From Patescibacteria group bacterium (GTDB lineage Bacteria > Patescibacteriota > Microgenomatia > Levybacterales > UBA12049): a DNA stretch of 64,000 nucleotides. A model generated the notes under the pieces. It was not told the DNA's origin, did not search any database, and saw only the letters and a program-made list of their open reading frames with translations. The translations under genes were made by a program, and so were the position numbers. Positions 3,979-54,436 of the stretch are shown piece after piece. Each line of letters starts with the position of its first letter. The stretch's first letter is position 1. Location: the NCBI GenBank assembly GCA_038064195.1, contig JBBTTO010000004.1, forward strand, positions 2,357 to 66,356, written 5' to 3'.

Positions 3979-4064
3979 CGTCTCTAGTATACAATGCTGT
4001 CGAGTTCAATGCAAAGAAATTTGCCGCTTGCAAAGACTTATTTTATTTGTTTGAATATCTTTAA

Positions 4065-4191
4065 GCATACAGAGAGTCCCGATATTTCGGGACCGGCAAC
4101 CGAGGTATACGGTGCCAAAGTCTTAAGACATATGCGCCCACATAGGTGAGGAAATACAGATCAGATCCTCTCTCTATGAGAGGATTTTTTT
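4065..4191 (+). promoter_or_regulatory. SAM-I/IV-family (S-box-like) riboswitch leader of metK
   Basis: UCCCGAUAUUUCGGGACCGGCAACC..GGUGCCAA core; P4-like GUCUUAAGAC; SD-sequestering hairpin CCUCUCUC/GAGAGGA and U-run before the ATG. Confidence 0.5.
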
Positions 4192-5304
4192 ATGAAAAAA
4201 ACGTGGACATTTACTTCAGAGTCAGTATGCAGTGGCCATCCTGATAAAATATGTGATCAGATAAGCGACGCCATTGTCGATGCCGTTCTGAAAAAAGATC
4301 CCCAGGGAAGAGTCGCTGTTGAGACGTTAGCGGCTAATAACCACCTCGTGCTTGCGGGTGAAGTAACAACGAGTGAGCCGATTGACTTTAGCAAGATTGC
4401 TAAGGAGCAAATTAAACGTCTGGGCTATAGTAGCCCTGATTTTAATTTTTCAGATAAGTCACCAATTGACAGTTACGTTCATTCACAATCTCCTGAGATT
4501 GCCAAAGGGGTTGATAAAAAAGGTGCCGGTGACCAGGGGATGATGTTTGGATTTGCCTGTAAGGAAACGCCGTCTTTCATGCCTATGCCTATCACCTTAG
4601 CGCACGCGTTAACGCAAGCAATTGATACCGCTCGCGAAACAAAAACTCTTGCCTATCTTCACCCTGACGGGAAAAGTCAGGTGACAGTTAAGTACCTGGA
4701 TGATCAGCCGGTAGGGGTAACTAAGGTCGTTATTGCCGTACCGCACAACGAGAATATCTCTTTAGCCCGGGTAAAAGATGATATTTATACTAAAATTGTC
4801 TTGCCTACATTGAAAAAATACAATTTTACAGTCGCTAAAGACGATCTGATCGTCAACGGAACAGGCGTTTGGCACCGTGGAGGACCTGCCTCAGACTGCG
4901 GGCTGACCGGGAGAAAAATTGTGGTTGATACCTACGGCGGGTACGCCAGAGTCGGCGGAGGAGCCTTCAGCGGGAAGGACCCGACCAAAGTGGACAGATC
5001 AGGAGCGTATGCCGCCCGTTACCTGGCAAAAAATATAGTAGCTCACGGCCTGGCTGAAAAAGCCGAAGTAAGCCTGGCCTATTTTATCGGTGCCACAAAA
5101 CCTCTTATGCAGGAGGTAGAAACCTTTAGTACTGAAACTGTCTCGCAAAAAGCAATAAAAGATTTTTGTAAAAAGATACTTGATACATCTGTCGAGGGTA
5201 TATTAGACGGGCTTATGCTACGACGACCTCTCTACCTACCTACAGCAGTATATGGTCACTTCGGCAAAAAAGATCTGCCCTGGGAAAAAATTGCCAAAAT
5301 CTAA
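4192..5304 (+). CDS. metK: S-adenosylmethionine synthetase
   Basis: FTSESVCSGHPDKICDQISDAIVDAVL N-terminus and 370-aa length match MetK. Confidence 0.9.
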   Translation: MKKTWTFTSESVCSGHPDKICDQISDAIVDAVLKKDPQGRVAVETLAANNHLVLAGEVTTSEPIDFSKIAKEQIKRLGYSSPDFNFSDKSPIDSYVHSQSPEIAKGVDKKGAGDQGMMFGFACKETPSFMPMPITLAHALTQAIDTARETKTLAYLHPDGKSQVTVKYLDDQPVGVTKVVIAVPHNENISLARVKDDIYTKIVLPTLKKYNFTVAKDDLIVNGTGVWHRGGPASDCGLTGRKIVVDTYGGYARVGGGAFSGKDPTKVDRSGAYAARYLAKNIVAHGLAEKAEVSLAYFIGATKPLMQEVETFSTETVSQKAIKDFCKKILDTSVEGILDGLMLRRPLYLPTAVYGHFGKKDLPWEKIAKI

Positions 5305-5360: not shown

Positions 5361-6128
5361 TTATGGTCTCCAACCTTCATAGGCGTAATAACTTCCGAAC
5401 TTTGCAACACAGACGTTGGGAGTATCCTGCCGCATATTCTCCGCATGACCTGAGGAATTGATCCACATGGTAACAACTTGCTTATAATCGGAAGTCATCG
5501 CGATATTTTCTGTGACTTTACGATAGGAGGGATAAGGCAGCGTACGCGAATTGATGCGGTTTGAGAAACCGTCATGGTTAAAGCTACGCGTGATCTCCTC
5601 AGCTCGAGTAGCCGCAAACCCGCACGTATAACTGTCTGTTTTGACACCGGCTAGTCCTTGTGAGCTTCGATACTCATTGATCTTTTGCATGAGGTAGTCC
5701 TGGATAGCATTACCGGAAGAGGGTGTAGGCGAGACACTGACATTGACTGGCGTGGGGGTCACAGTCTGAACGGGTAAAGGCATTTTCGTTGGTGTAGGGG
5801 TATTTGTTGGCACTAGGGCTCTTGTCCGAGTAGGTGTAGGAGACTGAGTCGGTATAGCTGTTGGCGAAAAAATAGGCGTCGGCCCCGATTGAACCCCGAT
5901 AGTATCGGGGGAACTCGGGGTTGGTGTGGTCTTAATCGTCAACCTGGGAAAAGATGGTGCTGCAGGAGCTTTGGGGGCAACCGGAGCAGTGAAGGGAAGC
6001 CTAGCAGCCGCAACTTTTTTAACACCGAGAATTGAACGATGATCGGAGCGGGAATCCAGCAGGATAAATGTAATGGAGATGAGGAAGATTATTGCGAAAG
6101 GGTAGGGAAGTATGAGTAATTTTCGCAT
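5361..6128 (-). CDS. secreted CAP/SCP (YkwD-like) domain protein with Pro/Thr-rich linker
   Basis: N-terminal TM, long PTPT linker, C-terminal YKQVVTMW..GHAENM..YYAYEGW CAP-like motifs. Confidence 0.6.
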   Translation of the reverse strand: MRKLLILPYPFAIIFLISITFILLDSRSDHRSILGVKKVAAARLPFTAPVAPKAPAAPSFPRLTIKTTPTPSSPDTIGVQSGPTPIFSPTAIPTQSPTPTRTRALVPTNTPTPTKMPLPVQTVTPTPVNVSVSPTPSSGNAIQDYLMQKINEYRSSQGLAGVKTDSYTCGFAATRAEEITRSFNHDGFSNRINSRTLPYPSYRKVTENIAMTSDYKQVVTMWINSSGHAENMRQDTPNVCVAKFGSYYAYEGWRP

Positions 6129-24223: not shown

Positions 24224-24706
24224 TTGTCAATGCGAAATACCCTCTTCCTAACGTATTATATTATTATGCATTTTACAATTACGACAAAGCTATTCCATAT
24301 TTCAGATAAAGACTGTCAGTATATAGAAAAACTAGTAAAAAAACTTTTGCAGCTCACACCTTGGAAGGAACCAGACTACCCGCTTCTTGACATACTCCTC
24401 CGAAAGCACAGGAAGAAAAGCCTTGATCATATTGAAAAAAGGCTTATTTTGGAAGGTGCTATACAACCCAAACACGGACACGAAACAATTGATAATCCTG
24501 TATATTATGACGGCACTTTAGATCTTATTCTTCCAAAGAAACGTATTGTGGCAAATATGCTGGGTAAAACAGTACATGAGGCTCTCAAAGATGGGTTTGA
24601 CGAGTTGTTCCTGGAACTTGATAAGTATAAGGGACTACATTTTGCTAATGACAGCGAGTATTACAACCATAGGACAATTCGACAAAATAGGAAAGAAATC
24701 TTATGA
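24224..24706 (+). CDS. hypothetical protein, translationally coupled to the eRF1-like gene
   Basis: 160-aa ORF; its stop overlaps the next ATG (ATGA). Confidence 0.45.
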   Translation: MSMRNTLFLTYYIIMHFTITTKLFHISDKDCQYIEKLVKKLLQLTPWKEPDYPLLDILLRKHRKKSLDHIEKRLILEGAIQPKHGHETIDNPVYYDGTLDLILPKKRIVANMLGKTVHEALKDGFDELFLELDKYKGLHFANDSEYYNHRTIRQNRKEIL

Positions 24707-25164
24707 AAACGATGCAAAAACATAACAAATATTTAGTACTTCTAGTAGATAGAAAACGTGCTCGAATGTTTACCATGAGTAATGGCGTTGTTGAGGCAGA
24801 TGAAGAGCTGATCATTAATGACGTTCCGCAGAAGGTAAAGCACGGCGATGATACTTGGGATGCACAGAATAAAATCTTTCGCCATATCGAAGATCATTTA
24901 CACCGACACTTAACGCTTATTGCCCAAAATACGGCTTCTTACGCTAAGAAAAATAATATAAACAGAGTAATAATTGGAAGTCACAAACCGTTATTTTCAA
25001 AAATCAAAAAACATCTTCCCTATCCGCTTAATAAAAAAGTAGAAGGAACATTTGTTACAGAGCTTAAAGCACCGTTTGGTGAGATAGTCAAGCGGGCAAA
25101 AAATTGCATTGAAAGAGTTGAGGGTAGCGAGGAGGTAAAAAGATATGAAAAATACTTTGCTTAG
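24703..25164 (+). CDS. Host_attach / bacterial eRF1-like (baeRF) family protein
   Basis: YLVLLVDRKRARMF N-terminus and mid-region RHIEDHLHRHL...NRVIIGSH...IKKHLP pattern. Confidence 0.5.
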   Translation: MKTMQKHNKYLVLLVDRKRARMFTMSNGVVEADEELIINDVPQKVKHGDDTWDAQNKIFRHIEDHLHRHLTLIAQNTASYAKKNNINRVIIGSHKPLFSKIKKHLPYPLNKKVEGTFVTELKAPFGEIVKRAKNCIERVEGSEEVKRYEKYFA

Positions 25165-29115: not shown

Positions 29116-29187
29116 GCGGGGGTAGTTCAGCGATAGAACGCTTCCTTGCCAAGGAAGAGGTCGCGGGTTTGATTCCCGTTCCCCGCT
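29116..29187 (+). tRNA. tRNA-Gly (anticodon GCC)
   Basis: acceptor GCGGGGG/TCCCCGC, anticodon loop TTGCCAA, T-loop TTTGATT. Confidence 0.85.
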
Positions 29188-29229
29188 CATAATCAGTTCT
29201 CCCACAAAATGTCTTAAGGACACAACTCT

Positions 29230-29302
29230 GCTGAGGTAGCCAAGGTGGTCAAGGCACCTGTCTGAAGAACAGGCCATGTCAGTTCGACTCTGACCCTCAG
29301 CA
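29230..29302 (+). tRNA. tRNA-Phe (anticodon GAA)
   Basis: acceptor GCTGAGG/CCTCAGC, anticodon loop CTGAAGA, T-arm GTCAG-TTCGACT-CTGAC; unusual 3-bp D-stem. Confidence 0.7.
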
Positions 29303-29329
29303 CCCGCTACCCGCTACCCGCTACCCGCT
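29302..29329. repeat. tandem heptamer (ACCCGCT) x4, same unit as at 5305
   Basis: acccgct repeated four times starting at the tRNA-Phe discriminator base. Confidence 0.85.
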
Positions 29330-29346
29330 TATGATATGATAGAGTC

Positions 29347-29607
29347 ATGAGCATACAGGATATCTTTTATTCTCTCGGGATTTTCTTCATGGTACTCGGG
29401 ATCACAATCCTGGTTATGATCATCGCCCTCCTCTGGACCATCAAACAAAAGATAACCTTTATCCATGATCTGGTTGAAAGACAAGTCATCAGACTTACCG
29501 GGAACTCAACCGATGTAGCCATGGAGCTGGGATCTAAAGTCGCCTCAGCCGCTGTTCGAAGAGTGAGAGACGCAATCACGAAGAAAAAGGAAGACTCCTC
29601 AATATAG
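29347..29607 (+). CDS. small hypothetical membrane protein
   Basis: 86 aa with one N-terminal TM and a basic C-terminus. Confidence 0.4.
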   Translation: MSIQDIFYSLGIFFMVLGITILVMIIALLWTIKQKITFIHDLVERQVIRLTGNSTDVAMELGSKVASAAVRRVRDAITKKKEDSSI

Positions 29608-29697
29608 CCTTTTTACGAAAATACTGACCCCTACTTTCCTAAATGTATCTTTTCTCTTATAATGAGCAGACAAATATTGCCTATAGAAGCTACGAAA

Positions 29698-29780
29698 TGC
29701 GGATGTGGTGAAATGGTATACACGCTGGCTTCAGGTGCCAGTGCCCGCAAGGGTGTGGAGGTTCAACTCCTCTCATCCGC
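29698..29780 (+). tRNA. tRNA-Leu (anticodon CAG)
   Basis: long variable arm; anticodon loop TTCAGGT; acceptor GCGGATG/CATCCGC. Confidence 0.85.
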
Positions 29781-29837
29781 ACATAGACCTACTGTAGATA
29801 GTTTCGTAGAGCGTAATTTGGTATAATCGGTGAACTC

Positions 29838-29923
29838 GCGGATGTGGTGAAATGGTATACACGCTACCTTGAGGTGGTAGTGCCCGCAAGGGTGTGGAGG
29901 TTCAACTCCTCTCATCCGCACCA
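29838..29923 (+). tRNA. tRNA-Leu (anticodon GAG)
   Basis: near-identical to the previous Leu apart from anticodon stem-loop TTGAGGT; encoded CCA; TGgTATAAT promoter upstream. Confidence 0.85.
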
Positions 29924-29997
29924 GGGCGATTAGCTCAGCTGGCTAGAGCGCTTCATTTACACTGAAGATGTCGGGGGTTCAAATCCCTCATCGCCCA
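29924..29997 (+). tRNA. tRNA-Val (anticodon UAC)
   Basis: GGGCGAT acceptor, anticodon loop TTTACAC, begins directly after the Leu CCA. Confidence 0.85.
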
Positions 29998-30059
29998 CAT
30001 TTCTTTCTCTCCTCTTGCTTGACAACAAAATGAGAATTTGACATGATGGATGATACTCC

Positions 30060-30638
30060 ATGAGGAAGTTACTTCTGCTCACAACTTTCTTTAGTCTTAC
30101 TCCTGTGATCTTAGTTATCGCACTTGTCGGGCTACTGACACTTTTCCACCATAGTAAGACCTACTTAGCCCTTAAAAGCCCCTATCAGCATACAGTCGCT
30201 TTCGCAGCACTCCCTTCAGCCCAAAATAGTTTCAGCGATACCATCAAAAGTGCTGACGCACGCAGTGAAATCCTCACTCAATTCTTTGCCAAATACAATT
30301 CACCGCTTAAGCCTTATGCCTCTGAATTCGTCAAGAAAGCAGAGGAGTATGAGCTTGACTTCAGACTCCTGCCGGCTATAGCCATGCAAGAAACCAATCT
30401 TTGTCTTAAATCTCATGAGGACTCATATAATTGTTGGGGGTTTGGTGTGCATGGGGGAAAGTATCTCTACTTTGACAGTTATCCTCAGGCTATTGATACT
30501 ATCTCAAAGGCTCTAGCGCAGCGCTACCGTGACCGGCACGGCCTGGTAACACCCGCGGAAATCCAAAAGCTTTACAATCCGACTAATACCAATGCCTGGG
30601 CCTCAAGTGTGGATCACTTCATGAATTCACTGCAATAA
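30060..30638 (+). CDS. secreted glucosaminidase-like (GH73/FlgJ-type) peptidoglycan hydrolase
   Basis: N-terminal TM; LPAIAMQETNL region with catalytic-Glu context, YNCWGFG. Confidence 0.55.
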   Translation: MRKLLLLTTFFSLTPVILVIALVGLLTLFHHSKTYLALKSPYQHTVAFAALPSAQNSFSDTIKSADARSEILTQFFAKYNSPLKPYASEFVKKAEEYELDFRLLPAIAMQETNLCLKSHEDSYNCWGFGVHGGKYLYFDSYPQAIDTISKALAQRYRDRHGLVTPAEIQKLYNPTNTNAWASSVDHFMNSLQ

Positions 30639-30732
30639 TACTTTTTAGCACATAATTTGTGTTCAATCCTCGTTAAATTATTTAGCCTCATATCGAGGCT
30701 AAATAACTTTCTTACAATTTAGTGATAAATAC

Positions 30733-30761
30733 TTGACAAACCTATAGTCATTTGCTATAAT
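30733..30761 (+). promoter_or_regulatory. consensus sigma70-type promoter (TTGACA-17-TGcTATAAT)
   Basis: perfect -35 TTGACA, 17-bp spacer, TATAAT with extended TG. Confidence 0.6.
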
Positions 30762-30816
30762 CCTCGCAGGTCCTGAGGTCAGATATCCAACATCCGACGT
30801 CGGGATCCTTAAGAAT

Positions 30817-30847
30817 CCTAATACAGCAATGTATTAGGTTTTTTTTT
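30817..30847 (+). terminator. intrinsic terminator ending an ~80-nt leader
   Basis: CCTAATAC-AGCAAT-GTATTAGG followed by T9. Confidence 0.65.
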
Positions 30848-30947
30848 GGAATAACAATCTATTCTTTATAGGTCGTCATTCGACTCAATTCACATGAGAA
30901 AAAAGGCTCAGCCAGTTCTTATGCGAATTAAGACGAAGGGAAAACTT

Positions 30948-31511
30948 ATGAAAAATAAAACTATACTTATTCCAATCATCGCAGGACTTCTCCTGACGAT
31001 TTTATCTCCCCAAAAAGCACAAGCTGACGACAAAATTGCTGCTTCTTCTGCTGCTTTTATTCAAACGGCTACCTTATCAGAGAGAACCGATAACCGTGCC
31101 CAGATCCTTAAAGATTACCTGAATCAATATAATTCTCCTTTGTCAGGATCCGCTCAAACCTTTATTAATGAGGCTGATAGATACAATCTGGACTGGAAAT
31201 TCGTTGCCGCTATTTCAGGACTTGAATCAAGCTATGGAAAGCACATCCCTCCTAACTCATATAACGGATGGGGATGGGGGATCTATGGTGACAATGTCAA
31301 ATACTTCACGTCCTGGAATGAGGCTATCGCGACTATCTCAAAAGGCCTTCGTGAACAATATATGGATAAATGGGGAGCTCAAGACGTCTACAGTATCGGT
31401 CATATCTATGCCGCCAGCCCTACTTGGGCAGAACGTGTAAGCGGTATCATGGCTAATATGGAAAAATTCCAGCTCAACTGGACTGATACCTCTCTTTCCC
31501 TTTCACTATAA
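30948..31511 (+). CDS. secreted glucosaminidase-like peptidoglycan hydrolase (paralog of 30060..30638)
   Basis: signal-peptide start MKNKTILIPIIAG with AAGGGAAAA RBS (ORF track starts at 30894); AAISGLESSYGK, YNGWGWG. Confidence 0.55.
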   Translation: MKNKTILIPIIAGLLLTILSPQKAQADDKIAASSAAFIQTATLSERTDNRAQILKDYLNQYNSPLSGSAQTFINEADRYNLDWKFVAAISGLESSYGKHIPPNSYNGWGWGIYGDNVKYFTSWNEAIATISKGLREQYMDKWGAQDVYSIGHIYAASPTWAERVSGIMANMEKFQLNWTDTSLSLSL

Positions 31512-31613: not shown

Positions 31614-31696
31614 GCCCAGGTGGTGAAATGGTAGACACGATAGGTTTAGGACCTATTGCTCGTAAGAGTATGGGGGTTCAAGTCCTCTCCTGGGCA
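31614..31696 (+). tRNA. tRNA-Leu (anticodon UAG)
   Basis: acceptor GCCCAGG/CCTGGGC, anticodon loop TTTAGGA, long variable arm. Confidence 0.85.
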
Positions 31697-31700
31697 CAAT

Positions 31701-31825
31701 TCATTGGTGGTGAAATGGAGCGGAGGCAGCAGGCCGAGCTCGCCTGCTTGACAGGCGCGGAATGACACGCTGGCTTTAGGAGCCAGTGCCTAAAAAGCAT
31801 GGGGGTTCGAGTCCCTTCATCCGCA
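31701..31825 (+). pseudogene. aberrant tRNA-Leu(UAG)-like element with a ~45-nt GC-rich hairpin insertion and no proper 5' acceptor strand
   Basis: 3' two-thirds (anticodon arm CTGGC-TTTAGGA-GCCAG, variable arm, T-arm, CATCCGC-A) is tRNA-Leu-like; D-loop interrupted by GCAGGC-CGAGCTC-GCCTGC hairpin; 5' TCATTGG cannot pair. Confidence 0.5.
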
Positions 31826-31897
31826 CTAGATAGGACGTTCTCTTCAAATGAATGAATAGCTTGATAGGTAGAGCCAATGTGGCATGTTGTAGAGGAT

Positions 31898-32398
31898 TTA
31901 TGTTGTAGATAGATTGCTCACGGATGATCTCCCCAGACGCTTTAGAGTCCTTTTTTGCGTATCATTAAATTGGTCTACAATAGTTCTGTTTAATGCTCCG
32001 TTAATATACCCATCAGAATTTCCGCCCAATTTTCGTCTTCTATTAGGCGTTGTATTTGCTGATCCATCAAGTTCTGCCTTAATATTTCTCCAAGCGTCAT
32101 CTTCATAATCTGATCCTGGCAGAAGATCCGGCGTATATAGAGTGACTGTAGTTATAGCTTGAGGCGATACTTTTCTATTCACGGATTCTGAGGGAGCATC
32201 ATGACCATTATTACCCAAGGTCGGGAGGATTACCCGGAGTTCCTTAATAATTTCATTCGCTCTGTTAATAGCTTGCTCACGATTCATCCAATGATTGTAT
32301 CCTATAATATTCAACCTGTCAAGAAGAAACATAGGAGTTACAAATAGAGAGAAAAAGAAAAAAATAAAATAACACTCTAAATCTTGACATATTAGCAT
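31898..32398 (-). CDS. hypothetical secreted/membrane-anchored protein
   Basis: 166 aa with an N-terminal hydrophobic segment. Confidence 0.4.
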   Translation of the reverse strand: MLICQDLECYFIFFFFSLFVTPMFLLDRLNIIGYNHWMNREQAINRANEIIKELRVILPTLGNNGHDAPSESVNRKVSPQAITTVTLYTPDLLPGSDYEDDAWRNIKAELDGSANTTPNRRRKLGGNSDGYINGALNRTIVDQFNDTQKRTLKRLGRSSVSNLSTT

Positions 32399-32435
32399 TT
32401 TATAGATATACTTTAGATATTAAATAGGTATATTT

Positions 32436-32696
32436 ATGAGTACACAACAAGTACAACTAAAGGTTAGTCTCTCCGATCAGCTTAACGACTTGCTACAGTC
32501 TAAGGCACAACGTCTTGGTATTCCTGTGACTCAATTTGTCAAACATCTTATTATCAAAGAAGTAGAGACTGAAGAATATCCTACTTTTCCCATGTCAAAG
32601 AGGACAGAGACGAAGGCAAGAGAAGCTTTACAAGAGTATGAGTTAGGCAAAGCAGTTGACACATCAGACTTCTTCAAAAAACTGAATGAGAGCTAA
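32436..32696 (+). CDS. RelB/DinJ-family antitoxin
   Basis: N-terminal RHH-like KVSLSDQLNDLLQSKAQRLGIPVTQFVKHLI; C-terminal DTSDFFKKL like DinJ. Confidence 0.6.
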   Translation: MSTQQVQLKVSLSDQLNDLLQSKAQRLGIPVTQFVKHLIIKEVETEEYPTFPMSKRTETKAREALQEYELGKAVDTSDFFKKLNES

Positions 32697-32958
32697 ACTT
32701 TCTCCTTTTATCCAGAAAGAAATTGCCCGGATCTATAAAAAGGACAAGAAATTAGCCACTAAAATAGAAAAACAGATACTTCTTCTTGAAACAAACCCAA
32801 AGCATCCTTCTCTCAGGCTACATAAACTTTCAGGTAGATTAAATAACTTATGGAGTATTTCTATCACAACGTCAATTTGAATGATATATCGTCTTATTGA
32901 TCAAGAAAATGCCTATTTTATTGACATAGGCACACATGACGAGGTCTATAATAAGTAG
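32686..32958 (+). pseudogene. RelE/YafQ-family toxin interrupted by an in-frame TGA
   Basis: ...HPSLRLHKLSGRLNNLWSISITTSI-TGA-MIYRLIDQENAYFIDIGTHDEVYNK is contiguous in one frame; 11-nt overlap with the antitoxin. Confidence 0.55.
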
Positions 32959-33049
32959 TTCTTTCTTCATTCCTCAAGGCTTGATATAGCTCCATCCTTC
33001 CGCACATTTTCTTCTCGACTCCTCGATCTAAGCGTGCTATAATAGCCTC

Positions 33050-33877
33050 ATGGCAACTACCATTAACAGACTCCCAGACGGCACTATTGAACTGAAAGTC
33101 ACTATCCCCGCAACCCTTATCAAAAAAACTCGCGAAGAGGTCATGGCTCAGGTGGCCAGTACCGCCAAAGTCGCCGGCTTCAGACCAGGTAAAGCTCCCA
33201 AAAAAGTCGTTGAAGAGACGGCTGATAAAGCAAAGGTACGAGAGGAAGTCCTCAGAGTACTTATCCCCCAGACCTACATCGAAGCAGTCCAGGAGCATAG
33301 CCTCAAACCCATAGTCAATCCTAAAATTCACGTCGATGAGCTTGAAGATGATAAAGACTGGTCTTTTAGCGCAACCACCTGTGAGATGCCTAAAGTAGAC
33401 TTAGGTAACTACAAAGATGCCGTAAAAGGTGTCACAGCCAAAAGTAAAATAGTCGTACCAGGCAAAGAACAGACCAAGCCTGACCTGGATACGATTGTCA
33501 AAGAATTAGTCGGTGCAGTCACTGTCACCATTCCGTCAATCCTTACAGACTATGAGGCAGATCGTCTTTTATCCCAGACTTTAGACGAAATCAAGAAATT
33601 AGGTCTCTCACTTGATCAATATCTGTCATCAACAGGCAAAACTCCCGAACAATTACGTGAAGAATATGTCGCTAAAGCGACCATGGATATGAAGCTCGAG
33701 TTTGCTCTGCAGCAAATTGCAGATAGCGAAAAAATAATTGTTGATCAAAAAGAAATCGAGGAAGCTGTCAGTCGCGCCAAAGATCCCGCTGAGAAAACCC
33801 ATTTAGAATCCAATAAATATCTCCTGGCTAATATTATAAGACAACAAAAAACGCTTGATTTCCTGCAAAATCTGTGA
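33050..33877 (+). CDS. tig: trigger factor, short form
   Basis: N-terminal ribosome-binding domain with the GFRPGKAPKKVVE signature; only 275 aa (no PPIase-sized middle domain). Confidence 0.7.
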   Translation: MATTINRLPDGTIELKVTIPATLIKKTREEVMAQVASTAKVAGFRPGKAPKKVVEETADKAKVREEVLRVLIPQTYIEAVQEHSLKPIVNPKIHVDELEDDKDWSFSATTCEMPKVDLGNYKDAVKGVTAKSKIVVPGKEQTKPDLDTIVKELVGAVTVTIPSILTDYEADRLLSQTLDEIKKLGLSLDQYLSSTGKTPEQLREEYVAKATMDMKLEFALQQIADSEKIIVDQKEIEEAVSRAKDPAEKTHLESNKYLLANIIRQQKTLDFLQNL

Positions 33878-34570: not shown

Positions 34571-34712
34571 TCTTGACAGAAAATAAAAGGGTCGTTACAA
34601 TCTAAATACATGTACAGTCGAAATCTTATTCTTAATGTCGTTATTGTCCTCCTTAGCGAGGGCGGTAACGGTGTGGTAAGAAAGTAAGACTTACAATTTA
34701 AAGACACCCGAA

Positions 34713-34742
34713 ACCGCCTCCTCACAAGGGAGGTTTTTTTTG
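34713..34742 (+). terminator. intrinsic terminator
   Basis: CCTCC-TCACAA-GGGAGG followed by T8. Confidence 0.65.
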
Positions 34743-34752
34743 TGAAAAAAAT

Positions 34753-35553
34753 ATGAAAGAATTTATACAACAAAAATTTTGGGTACACACACGCGGAATT
34801 GAGATGCTTCTACCACCATCATTCCCTCACGCAGAAAATGAAAGTGAACGTTTAAGACAGATCACAAACGACGGCACACTCAGAAGACGCTATCCCGACC
34901 CTGATGAAGGAAGGGATTTTATGGACGAAATTGACTTTGATCGTAGGAATAAACTTCTAGGTATGGCTCAAGAAGCTAACCATAAAATAATTGAGGAATG
35001 GAAAGGAATTAACCCTGACAAGAATATAGCAGTTATCCTCTTCGGCTCTGTAGCAAAAGGACTTGTAAAAAAATCCGATCATAAAGACCCAAGCAATATT
35101 GATATGGCGGTGATAGGAGATATAACAGATAACGAATCTGAGAGATTATTCGATGCGATTAGACCCTATAGAACAGCTATTCAAGAGAAAATTCTGAGTG
35201 ATTGTGATAAGGTCGAGAGTGATGATACAAATCCTGGCAATTTAGGAATACTTATACAGCATACCGATAAATTGACAAACGGACACTATTCAGGTGCTGC
35301 TGCGCATATCATGGCCGGAGCTTTTTCACTTTATGACCCACAGGATATCTGGACGGAAATCGAACAGTATGCATTGGAAAAGATGGCGGAAGAACAAAAG
35401 CACAAACGTCAACACAGACAAACTTCTGTAATCCCGGAATGGAAAAGCTTTGAACGAAGAATTAGATATGCGGAGAAACGAGGAGTGGAGAAGCCAATTC
35501 TTGAGCCGCAAGGAGTTATTTTTGAACAACTACCCTTGACTGATTTGCAGTAA
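34753..35553 (+). CDS. nucleotidyltransferase (Pol-beta superfamily) domain protein
   Basis: ILFGSVAKG...SNIDMAVIGD (GS...DxD-type NTase motif). Confidence 0.5.
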   Translation: MKEFIQQKFWVHTRGIEMLLPPSFPHAENESERLRQITNDGTLRRRYPDPDEGRDFMDEIDFDRRNKLLGMAQEANHKIIEEWKGINPDKNIAVILFGSVAKGLVKKSDHKDPSNIDMAVIGDITDNESERLFDAIRPYRTAIQEKILSDCDKVESDDTNPGNLGILIQHTDKLTNGHYSGAAAHIMAGAFSLYDPQDIWTEIEQYALEKMAEEQKHKRQHRQTSVIPEWKSFERRIRYAEKRGVEKPILEPQGVIFEQLPLTDLQ

Positions 35554-52881: not shown

Positions 52882-53247
52882 ATGAAGACGTCGCAAGACC
52901 CCCGTCATATAAAACGTCAGCACGTCGTGCAGGAATTATTTAAAATCCAGTTCCACATTCAACCGGTCTCTGAAAGAGCTCAAGAGATAGTAAGTAATCT
53001 GGAATCAATTGACGAAAGAATACACCGGGCCGCACCCGAATTCCCGGTTGATAAAATCAATCGGATCGATCTCTCAATTTTACGGCTGGCTGTCTTTGAA
53101 TTAGTGATTGAAAAAAAAGAGCCCGTGAATGTTATAATAGACGAAGCGGTGGAACTCGGTAAGGAGTTCGGCGGTGAAGCGAGCCCAAGCTTTATTAACG
53201 GGGCATTAGGTAATATCATTTCTCATGAGCAATCTTCCAAAAATTAA
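52882..53247 (+). CDS. nusB: transcription antitermination factor NusB
   Basis: LAVFELVIEKKEPVNVIIDEAVELGKEFGGEASPSFINGALGNI. Confidence 0.8.
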   Translation: MKTSQDPRHIKRQHVVQELFKIQFHIQPVSERAQEIVSNLESIDERIHRAAPEFPVDKINRIDLSILRLAVFELVIEKKEPVNVIIDEAVELGKEFGGEASPSFINGALGNIISHEQSSKN

Positions 53248-53908
53248 CAATCAAGCACTTTTTGAACAGGCTTTTACCCATAGGTCTTATCTTAATGAAG
53301 CAAAAAAAGAACTCGAATCCAATGAGCGACTTGAGTTTCTGGGTGACAGTATTCTTTCCTTTGTAGTCTCTGAGCATCTTTACAAAAATTTCCCTGACTT
53401 TGATGAAGGAATTCTTACTAATTTACGATCACTCCTTGTCAATACAAAAAGTATCGCTCTGGCAGCCAAAACACTTGATTTCGGAAAATACCTCAAGCTT
53501 TCACGCGGAGAGGAAGAGTCAAAAGGACGGGAAAACGAGTCACTTTTAGCTAATTCTTTTGAAGCCTTTATCGGCGCACTCTACCTGGATCAGGGGATTG
53601 AACAAGCCAGAGAATTTATAGGAGGAATGCTTTTTGCACAAATTGACGACATTGTTGCCAATAAAGCATTTAAAGACCCCAAAAGTCTCCTGCAGGAATT
53701 TGTTCAGGCACGCAAACAAAACTCACCGGTTTATAAAGTACTCCACGAGGAAGGTCCGCCACACGCAAAGACATTCACCATCGGTGCTTTTGTTAATTCA
53801 TCTCAGATAGGCGAGGGAGTCGGCCGGTCTAAGCAGGAAGCCGAGGAACAAGCGGCGCAAAAAGCACTTGCATTTCTCCAAACTCAGGCTATCCCGTCCC
53901 AGGAGTAA
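53225..53908 (+). CDS. rnc: ribonuclease III
   Basis: ERLEFLGDSILSFVVSEHLY signature and C-terminal dsRBD. Confidence 0.9.
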   Translation: MSNLPKINNQALFEQAFTHRSYLNEAKKELESNERLEFLGDSILSFVVSEHLYKNFPDFDEGILTNLRSLLVNTKSIALAAKTLDFGKYLKLSRGEEESKGRENESLLANSFEAFIGALYLDQGIEQAREFIGGMLFAQIDDIVANKAFKDPKSLLQEFVQARKQNSPVYKVLHEEGPPHAKTFTIGAFVNSSQIGEGVGRSKQEAEEQAAQKALAFLQTQAIPSQE

Positions 53909-53964
53909 ATGTTACCCGCGGGCAGGCTTGAGAATCTGGTGAATTCATGATACAATGAACCTCT

Positions 53965-54192
53965 ATGGCAGTTGTAATACGTCTTAGCCGAACCGGTAAA
54001 AAAGGTGAACGGAAATTCCGTATCGTCGTTAAAGAAAAACGCAGTCGTCGTGACGGTGATTCCATTGAAAGCTTAGGCTGGTACGAAAAAGGCAAAAACG
54101 GCGGTAAAAAAGAATTGAATATGGAGAGATATAACTACTGGCTCTCCCAGGGCGCTCTCCCATCCCCGACAGTAGCGAAGCTCGCGAAATAA
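53965..54192 (+). CDS. rpsP: 30S ribosomal protein S16
   Basis: MAVVIRLSRTGKKGERKFRIVV. Confidence 0.9.
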   Translation: MAVVIRLSRTGKKGERKFRIVVKEKRSRRDGDSIESLGWYEKGKNGGKKELNMERYNYWLSQGALPSPTVAKLAK

Positions 54193-54193
54193 C

Positions 54194-54436
54194 ATGAAAG
54201 ATACACTCCACTTTATTGTTTCATCTATTGTTGAAAAAACCGATGCGGTAGCTATTGATGAAATTGAGGAAAATGGAGTTATCAATCTCGTCATTCATGT
54301 GGATCCGACAGAAATCGGCAAGGTCATAGGTAAAGAAGGCAAAGTCATTCGAAGTATCCGTAACCTCATGAAAGTAAAGGCGATGAAGCATGATGTACGA
54401 ATTATGGTCTCCCTCGCTGAAATCCCCCAAGAGTAA
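54194..54436 (+). CDS. KH-domain RNA-binding protein (YlqC/UPF0109-like)
   Basis: IGKVIGKEGKVIRSIRNLMKV KH motif; conserved position between rpsP and trmD. Confidence 0.75.
   Translation: MKDTLHFIVSSIVEKTDAVAIDEIEENGVINLVIHVDPTEIGKVIGKEGKVIRSIRNLMKVKAMKHDVRIMVSLAEIPQE

Follow-up and report, generated by a model that had tools for sequence, protein, structure and literature searches.

The peptidoglycan hydrolase gene h2 lies in a 64,000-nucleotide stretch of a Levybacterales genome (Patescibacteria group bacterium, GCA_038064195.1, contig JBBTTO010000004.1, positions 2,357 to 66,356 of the forward strand), which we call the window and whose own numbering is used below. We found that h2 is preceded by a consensus promoter and a strongly folded leader, and that this promoter-plus-leader module is a conserved feature of the Microgenomates group and not a chance arrangement. 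The region is probably a cis-acting 5′ leader of the h2 mRNA, that is, a promoter-proximal attenuator that also masks translation initiation, and we put the probability of this reading at roughly 0.65. A first-pass annotation, made from the letters alone, had proposed either a small non-coding RNA or a riboswitch or attenuator leader. The attenuator leader is the part of that proposal that holds, given the linkage of the module to h2 and the position of the h2 start codon directly after a hairpin and U7 tract in 12 species. An independent non-coding RNA is not favoured, and a riboswitch is unsupported, as the leader has no room for an aptamer, no alternative fold and no match in Rfam.

Promoter and leader of h2

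The elements of the region in the window are as follows.

30733..30761, + strand: promoter of sigma-70-type consensus, with −35 TTGACA at 30733–30738, a 17-nt spacer, an extended TG at 30753–30754 and −10 TATAAT at 30756–30761
30739..30748, no strand assigned: block AACCTATAGT in the promoter spacer, invariant in more than 45 species and a candidate DNA site for protein binding, either as an operator or for the loading of an antiterminator
A30768 (the A of AGGTCC), + strand: predicted transcription start, at the base of hairpin 1 and seven nt past the −10
30769..30807, + strand: hairpin 1, GGUCCUGA-G-GUC, loop AUCCAAC, GAC-G-UCGGGAUC, −17.8 kcal/mol
30817..30847, + strand: hairpin 2 and U9, predicted intrinsic terminator or attenuator, CCUAAUAC-AGCA-AUGUAUUAGG, stem at 30817–30838 and T9 at 30839–30847
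30860..30957, + strand: hairpin 3, long and imperfect, −30.8 kcal/mol, z −6.1, with a basal helix of 30865–30873 and 30944–30952
30948..31511, + strand: h2, secreted GH73/LytB-like peptidoglycan hydrolase of 187 aa with a signal peptide, the putative regulated gene

The promoter scores 12/12 and is the sole perfect TTGACA-17-TATAAT sequence in the window, where 0.02 are expected from shuffles. The 83-nt unit of hairpins folds at −31.6 kcal/mol (z −5.9). Within it, a short linker separates hairpin 1 from hairpin 2, whose arms CCTAATAC and GTATTAGG fold at −11.5 kcal/mol (z −4.65) and which a terminator scan also detects. These elements had been picked out in the first-pass annotation, which described a TTGACA-17-TGcTATAAT promoter, hairpins ending in a strong terminator with T9, a gap of about 100 nt to the hydrolase start and no other promoter before the gene, and our analysis bore out each of them: the U-tract is 100 nt from the start codon at 30948, and a promoter scan between 30848 and 30948 found no second site with at least 9 of 12 matches. 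As the promoter lies upstream of the hairpins, every h2 transcript carries them. Hairpin 2 retains the lower stem CCUAA/UUAGG of the ancestral hairpin described below, together with a layout resembling a Shine–Dalgarno (SD) site, UAGG-U7-UUG. Hairpin 3 had been missed; it holds the h2 AUG (30948–30950) base-paired within its basal helix and partly pairs the SD-like AAGGG at 30936–30940.

Conservation and linkage to h2

We examined h2 orthologues at 56 loci in species-representative genomes (labels beginning with L denote loci or contigs). All are from the Microgenomates group of Patescibacteria, comprising Levybacteria, Gottesmanbacteria and relatives, and they share 33–63% identity with the window protein, at least 41% in all except the most distant (L056). 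The non-coding DNA 5′ of h2 is conserved better than the protein itself, and the conservation of the module in nucleotide sequence spans candidate phyla. Using nhmmer, we found the promoter and hairpin 1 directly 5′ of h2 in about 32 loci, and a structure-aware search placed the module directly upstream of an h2 orthologue in 53 of the 56. We also searched metagenome contigs for a DNA pattern based only on the arms of the hairpin, a loose pattern that gave 120 hits, most of them chance, which were then filtered by the presence of the promoter and an AGATCC context. All 24 hits with the promoter directly precede an h2-type gene, often with h1, the upstream paralogue of h2, on the other side. 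Homologous leaders upstream of hydrolases in relatives, which the first-pass annotation had suggested looking for, are therefore present in 53 of 56 genomes and 24 of 24 metagenome contigs.

The promoter is constrained along with the hairpins. Its −35 is TTGACA in 71 of 74 species, the spacer is 17 nt in 65 of 74, and all variants of the −10 conform to TAnnnT. In 73 of 74 species, the A of AGAUCC is 6–8 nt past the −10, and the predicted transcript start is 0–2 nt before the first hairpin. We built a covariance model (R1) on 47 non-identical hairpins; it found exactly one copy per locus in a search space of 610 kb and scored hairpin 1 of the window at 38 bits (E 3.5e-5). Its other matches were weak reverse-strand echoes of these hairpins, a few hits at E about 1 or above, and a weak match in the window at 4161–4194, in the platform of the metK leader discussed below. 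No paper in the searchable literature links Microgenomates or Levybacteria to such a motif, and the module is undescribed there and in Rfam.

Covariation of the leader hairpin

The leader hairpin is a real RNA structure. In a MAFFT alignment of 47 sequences, 88% of the cells of a 17-pair helix are paired and eight pairs are altered on both sides (78 cells), values that 0 of 500 shuffles matched, in a control that ignores phylogeny. Sliding the partner by 1–3 columns lowered the pairing to 53% or less, and RNAalifold recovered the identical helix. At the variable N of CCUNAGG, changes are matched in the 3′ arm, giving A-U, U-A or G-C. The lower stem, GAUCCUNAGG with UN'AGGAUU, is nearly invariant, and its sequence AGAUCCUNAGG with UN'AGGAU is kept across Levybacteria, Gottesmanbacteria and other Microgenomates. 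From clade to clade, entirely different sequences make up the upper stem and loop (UAUGC/GCAUA, UUUGGA/UCCAGG, UUUUUC/GAAAAG and UGAUU/AAUCU). Conservation and covariation, on which the first-pass annotation had let a function for the leader depend, are thus both clearly present.

The ancestral hairpin and its later versions

Most relatives have a single hairpin, GAUCCUAAGG...UUAGGAUU, followed by U5–U8 (57 of 66) and then by AUG, GUG or UUG. This one-hairpin form is probably ancestral, and it looks like both an intrinsic terminator and an SD mask. In 12 species of several clades, the codon after the hairpin and U7 is the h2 start itself, and the signal peptide begins there. In those species the AGGA of the 3′ arm, the U7 tract and the AUG, 7 nt after the AGGA, have canonical ribosome-binding site geometry, within a stem of −16 to −20 kcal/mol. 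A start codon in this position means that the 3′ arm carries the ribosome-binding site and that the h2 mRNA must pass through the hairpin. A U-run of at least five follows the stem in 65 of 74 species and a pure run of 6–9 nt directly after it in 61 of 74, and the tract persists where the AUG has shifted 25–140 nt away.

The one-hairpin species with leaders of 24–125 nt lack a local SD in 35 of 36 cases, and the spacers inserted in them are strongly folded (mean z −4.0, with 27 of 36 below −2). These features would fit leaders that still rely on the old SD, by way of a bridging hairpin or of a short upstream open reading frame (uORF); in 13 species a uORF that starts after the U-tract ends no more than 12 nt from the h2 AUG. 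Because this genome has many leaderless-looking genes, the bridging-hairpin and uORF ideas are inseparable from chance. The uORF stops near the h2 AUG, five of the 13 in the form ATGA, may likewise be due to chance because second codons are A-rich. A conserved leader peptide was rejected, as the uORFs after the U-tract span anything from 2 to 88 codons.

Two hairpins are present in nine species, including that of the window, whose lineage duplicated the ancestral hairpin. Hairpin 1 of these species is the descendant of the ancestral terminator/SD hairpin: it keeps the apical part specific to Levybacteria, with a G.G mismatch and a UCCAA loop, and has lost the U-tract. Its lower stem is free to drift, most extremely to CCGGAUU/AGUCCGG in L032. 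Hairpin 2 has four pairs changed on both sides among the nine species, with compensation in its upper pairs, and U6–U9 tracts. Contig L101 is an intermediate in which a window-type hairpin 1 is directly followed by U7-AUGG.

The start of h2 in the window clade has moved past the U-tract, by about 25 nt in L001 and L002 and by about 100 nt in the window and the other five. In the six long-leader species, a new long hairpin pairs the h2 AUG within its basal helix. An equivalent helix with the AUG was found independently in five clade relatives, L011, L006, L007, L008 and L021; its sequence varies from species to species and yet remains complementary to the region of the start codon, with compensating changes (AUUCAU/AUGAAU versus GUUCAUA/UAUGAAC). 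The Gottesman-type leaders are about 215 nt long and have four hairpins, the last helix of which pairs the SD region just before the AUG. In L044 this leader, with its four conserved hairpins, occupies 5797–6006, and L041, L042, L045, L049, L050, L052 and L054 have likewise; it includes GCCUCUCCCACAAUAGAGGC, and its final helix pairs UCUUaCUUCACCUUG with CAAyGUGAGGnAAGA just before the AUG. Since the start region is masked in the window clade and in the Gottesman-type leaders as well, masking of the h2 initiation region is common to all versions of the leader.

Proposed attenuation and masking of translation

In the mechanism that we propose, most transcripts would stop at about 30847 and give an RNA of about 80 nt, and the fraction that reads through would carry a start codon locked in hairpin 3. 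The lytic enzyme would be off or low by default at two levels, through termination at hairpin 2 and U9 and through the masked start codon, despite the strong promoter. Release might come through a trans-acting factor that works on the promoter-spacer DNA block, on the invariant stem, or by processing or unwinding the RNA. Alternatively, the leader could be a fixed dampener.

Several observations bear on the termination step. The U-tract is retained both where the AUG has moved and in the window clade, whose h1 genes have a spacer and hairpin of their own, and so termination and not only spacing appears to be under selection. All eight of the two-hairpin species of the window clade keep the U-tract of hairpin 2, which is not needed for h1. 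The same design also occurs elsewhere in the window. A SAM-I/IV (S-adenosylmethionine) aptamer lies at 4060–4194, upstream of metK (4192–5304); its score of 40.6 bits (E 1.6e-5) falls just short of the gathering score of 41.1, so that default thresholds miss it. The platform of this riboswitch at 4163–4194 reads AGAUCCUCUCUC-UAU-GAGAGGAU-U7-AUG, so this organism uses such hairpins as off-state terminators and SD masks. Like the metK leader, with AGAUCCUCUCUC..GAGAGGAU-U7-AUG, the h2 leaders, with GAUCCUAAGG..UUAGGAU-U7-AUG, place a stem and U-tract between promoter and open reading frame (ORF), an SD in the 3′ arm and the start codon after U7. Unlike the metK leader, the h2 hairpin is not preceded by an aptamer or sensor, its transcript starts at the base of the hairpin, and it has no competing antiterminator fold.

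We found no antiterminator fold in the leader that would exclude its hairpins. Removing the 5′ arm of hairpin 1 does not prevent hairpin 2 from forming, and hairpin 1 forms in 70 of 72 upstream read-through contexts. With no cis antiterminator, relief of attenuation, if it is regulated, would need a trans-acting factor. Two candidate cis antiterminators were rejected as weak, unconserved and without covariation, one pairing the 3′ arm of hairpin 1 with the 5′ arm of hairpin 2 and the other pairing the upstream spacer, in RNA that reads through from h1, with the 5′ arm. A pseudoknot between the UCCAA loop and the UGG after the U-tract was discarded because species in which h2 starts at that AUG do not keep the GG, and because lineages other than Levybacteria have a different loop. 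A tRNA-like or anticodon-mimic reading of the loop was also set aside, the resemblance to the tryptophan anticodon loop being superficial.

Some points weigh against an attenuator that masks translation. Termination, read-through and the transcription start are all predictions from sequence, and the shuffle control for covariation is blind to phylogeny. Nine Gottesman-type leaders have UUAUUAAU in place of the U-run, so not all leaders would terminate at hairpin 1. Neither the leader folds nor, by Pfam, 40 ORFs of the window yielded a sensor, an antiterminator fold or a regulator, and it would be odd for a consensus promoter to drive a module that is constitutively off. In 26 of 64 relatives, transcripts of h1 also meet this hairpin as their first terminator, which alone could explain part of the conservation of the U-tract. 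Finally, the weight of the SD reading is uncertain because many genes of this genome look leaderless.

Many window genes have a TATAAT-like box 6–10 nt before the ATG, for example at 33038–33052 (tig), 62592 (−), 47222 (−) and 3978 (−), and SD-like motifs precede only a minority of gene starts. This arrangement suggests widespread leaderless mRNAs in this Levybacteria genome.

The invariant block in the promoter spacer

The block AACCTATAGT lies at about −29 to −20 relative to the predicted transcription start. A 16-mer, TTGACAAACCTATAGT, is found unchanged in 30 of 56 loci, with a single occurrence per locus and a single one in the window. Most relatives have a second copy of CCYATAGT 23–25 bp upstream, just 5′ of the −35, and the window clade does not. 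Between Levybacteria and Gottesmanbacteria, both copies are displaced in concert by about 6 bp, and within 610 kb the pair was found only at this promoter. Copies that shift together and are specific to one promoter fit a protein-binding site rather than an RNA polymerase contact, and the invariant block suggests a DNA-bound factor, possibly an antiterminator resembling phage Q proteins or AlpA. A general promoter motif was ruled out because TTGACAAACCTATAGT and the paired CCYATAG are confined to this promoter, and a reading as an extracytoplasmic-function sigma or sigma-54 promoter was rejected by inspection for misfit to the consensus. A looser scan of the window for CYYATAR was uninformative.

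At the alpB promoter of Pseudomonas aeruginosa, AlpA binds a 6-bp element at −25 to −20 and loads onto sigma-paused polymerase, which it then takes past a terminator further downstream and on into genes for lysis (PMC9371919, PMC7969949). The Q proteins of phages act likewise (PMC6606751). The h2 region shares with the lambdoid Q and AlpA systems a strong promoter, a conserved DNA element between −35 and −10 (here CCTATAGT at about −27 to −20, compared with −25 to −20 for AlpA), an intrinsic terminator just downstream that gives a short default transcript, and lysis-type genes beyond. It differs from them in four respects. The adjacent upstream gene is the paralogue h1 and not an antiterminator gene, the terminator begins right at +1 and not some tens of nucleotides further on, and the h2 locus is a conserved chromosomal neighbourhood and not a prophage. 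The fourth concerns the pause element. A −10-like TAAGGT at about +8 to +13 is present in most relatives, with TGAGGT in the window clade and TTAGGT in L014 and L094. The TGAGGT in the initial transcribed region of the window does not fit the sigma-dependent pause element TAnnnT, and the changes among the three forms are compensated in the 3′ arm of the RNA, so that the position covaries as RNA.

A scan of 40 ORFs in the 64-kb window with Pfam revealed no Q-like or helix-turn-helix antiterminator and no obvious transcription factor, and the conserved gene order h1-h2-tRNA-Leu-tig-DUF5660 contains no DNA-binding or regulator gene. Genes for NusB (52882–53247), RNase III (53225–53908) and a KhpA-type KH-domain RNA-binding protein (54194–54436) are clustered in the window at 52882–54436. 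RNase III and KhpA could conceivably act in trans on the leader hairpins, but nothing ties either to the leader. Taken together, the comparison leaves room for a speculative proposal, to which we give a low probability: a chromosomal, lineage-wide switch in which a factor, of the Q/AlpA type or another dedicated trans-acting type, would read the CCTATAGT repeats, load onto RNA polymerase, pass the +1 terminator and expose the hidden SD.

Alternative functions of the leader

We consider it unlikely that the element serves only translation or mRNA stability, with a 5′ hairpin that protects the mRNA end and masks the SD, a U-tract that is an SD–AUG spacer or an S1 or standby site, and no useful termination. 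The E. coli ompA and B. subtilis aprE leaders are 5′-terminal stabilising stem-loops, and the h2 leader resembles them in that its first transcribed nucleotides are paired in a stable hairpin, the transcript starting at the hairpin base. Such stabilisers require no conserved sequence, U-tract or SD in the stem, and here the h2 leader differs. The AGGA-U7-AUG arrangement that is the actual h2 start in 12 species, the Gottesman-type leaders that retain the hairpin and not the U-run, and the 35 of 36 one-hairpin leaders whose folded spacers and missing local SD fit use of the old SD would all be expected from a role in translation. A spacer or standby site does not account as well for the pure U6–U9 runs in 61 of 74 species and runs of at least five in 65 of 74, which are seen even with the AUG 25–140 nt away, or for hairpin 2 of the window clade, which keeps its U-tract with no start codon after it in most members. 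In addition, the hairpin-U7 design is that of the SAM riboswitch platform in this genome, and it is the sole terminator available to h1 in 26 of 64 loci.

RNA thermometers such as fourU and ROSE also have hairpins that mask the SD or AUG. The h2 leaders are like them in burying the SD (in relatives) or the AUG (in the window) in a helix with a conserved internal mismatch. Unlike thermometers, they combine much greater stem stability (−16 to −31 kcal/mol) with U-tracts of the terminator type after the stems, and nothing points to control by temperature.

An independent trans-acting small RNA (sRNA) of about 80 nt, with h2 expressed by leaky read-through or from another start, is very unlikely. 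The predicted strong promoter and strong terminator would indeed give a discrete short RNA, and this terminated product would be abundant; the conserved UCCAA apical loop and G.G mismatch in Levybacteria are, moreover, unexplained by a leader. The apical loop, however, is unconserved outside Levybacteria. The module is never away from h2 (53 of 56 loci, 24 of 24 contigs, one copy per locus), no second h2 promoter was found, and in the 12 species in which the ORF starts 7 nt past the stem the supposed sRNA is the 5′ untranslated region and overlaps the ribosome-binding site of h2.

A riboswitch that binds a metabolite or second messenger, after the precedent of the cyclic di-AMP (ydaO) riboswitch, is more improbable still. 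A site upstream of a cell-wall hydrolase is a common riboswitch context (PMC9960051), and true riboswitches, for example the metK leader here, do use platforms that combine a terminator with an SD mask. Like ydaO and the orphan leaders (PMC9960051), the module is a conserved structured 5′ leader before a secreted peptidoglycan-remodelling enzyme. Unlike them, it has a far simpler architecture, a range confined to Microgenomates and no match among the 4227 families of Rfam 15. It consists only of simple hairpins whose upper parts are freely variable, with no mutually exclusive fold, and there is no room for an aptamer because transcription starts 0–2 nt before the first hairpin. The Rfam scan that the first-pass annotation had recommended for the leader returned no family at the gathering score or at E ≤ 10. 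In the window only tRNAs reached the gathering score, and the best sub-threshold match was to SdsR, at 22 bits against 38, through similarity of the terminator only. Scans of 11 relatives and of the long Gottesman-type leader of L044 at E ≤ 10 gave nothing relevant.

Equally improbable is the scenario in which the hairpin and U-tract only terminate transcription of the upstream paralogue and do nothing for h2. The features concerned are as follows.

30060..30638, + strand: h1, the upstream hydrolase paralogue, 192 aa, with a near-leaderless start downstream of a promoter at 30019–30047
30678..30706, + strand: hairpin after h1, its likely terminator, TTATTTAGCCTC-ATATC-GAGGCTAAATAA, 12 pairs (terminator scan)

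This scenario, which had been named in the first-pass annotation, finds some support in relatives, where the h1 stop is within 15 nt of the −35 in 18 and within 40 nt in 26 of 64, the hairpin and U7 are the first terminator met and the hairpin forms in 70 of 72 read-through contexts. It fails in the window, where h1 has its own hairpin, and more generally because the promoter upstream of the hairpins puts them into all h2 transcripts and because the window clade keeps the U-tract of hairpin 2 (8 of 8) despite a separate h1 spacer of 59–109 nt.

The hydrolase genes and their neighbourhood

The assignment of h2 is based on three matches: to Pfam Glucosaminidase at E 3e-6, just below the cut-off and indicating a distant GH73/LytB-like relation; to the LytB-type structures 7pj3 and 4q2w in PDB at E 1.4e-5; and to an NCBIfam peptidoglycan hydrolase at E 3.6e-5. 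The proteins of h1 and h2 are 35% identical, and their tandem arrangement is kept in relatives. The order h1-h2-tRNA-Leu-tig-DUF5660, in which tig encodes trigger factor, is conserved across Microgenomates (loci L001–L056), and a tRNA is directly 3′ of h2 in every locus scanned.

31614..31697, + strand: tRNA-Leu(UAG), found by ARAGORN and Rfam, the downstream neighbour of h2

Five tRNA genes (Gly, Phe, Leu, Leu and Val) are clustered directly upstream of h1 at 29116–29998, and the h1 promoter begins 20 nt past tRNA-Val. Between h1 and h2, a palindromic TAGCCTC-N3-8-GAGGCTA hairpin recurs in the spacers of the window (30678–30706), L024, L026, L037, L048, L051 and L053, and in two genomes (L050 and L052) it is inserted into leader hairpin 2. 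Its half-sites are enriched about twofold across loci (68 against about 33 expected), and it looks like a REP-like (repetitive extragenic palindromic) or terminator-like repeat. On the other side of h2, the window has an additional insertion of about 1.3 kb, which separates tRNA-Leu from tig (region 31614–33050). The insert has divergent near-consensus promoters at 32322–32294 (−) and 32384–32412 (+), a DUF6290/ribbon-helix-helix-like ORF at 32436–32696 and an unknown ORF of 166 aa, and it may be a small toxin–antitoxin system or a mobile insertion beside the tRNA.

Two further regions of the window were noted. At 34573–34755, a near-consensus promoter (TTGACA-17-TACAAT, 34573–34601) precedes a leaderless-looking hydrophobic ORF of 25 codons (34610–34687). 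Downstream of this ORF are a hairpin, CCUCC..GGGAGG, with U8 at 34717–34741 and a 4-codon GUG uORF at 34742, whose TGA overlaps the ATG (34753) of a nucleotidyltransferase-like gene. The ORF at 24703–25164, which adjoins a DUF7670 ORF, has a bacterial archaeo-eukaryotic release-factor-like domain (baeRF family 10, E 1.6e-15).

Implications

Enzymes that hydrolyse peptidoglycan are dangerous, and it has long been asked how cells restrain them. To our knowledge, next to nothing has been learned of how genes are controlled in Patescibacteria, which are uncultivated and poor in regulators. The different leaders form an evolutionary series, from a single hairpin through the L101 intermediate to duplicated hairpins, in which the leader was rebuilt and its logic kept. 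A covariance model of the hairpin could seed a new Rfam family and improve the annotation of Microgenomates genomes. If the proposed switch at the promoter were true, it would amount to timed release of a cell-separation hydrolase in ultra-small bacteria of the Candidate Phyla Radiation, and it would be the first case of promoter-loaded antitermination as a core, vertically inherited circuit of cell-wall control rather than a phage or prophage device. The module itself is a concrete, testable regulatory unit that combines a promoter with an invariant block, a terminator that would double as a ribosome-binding site, and lineage-specific hairpins that mask the start codon.

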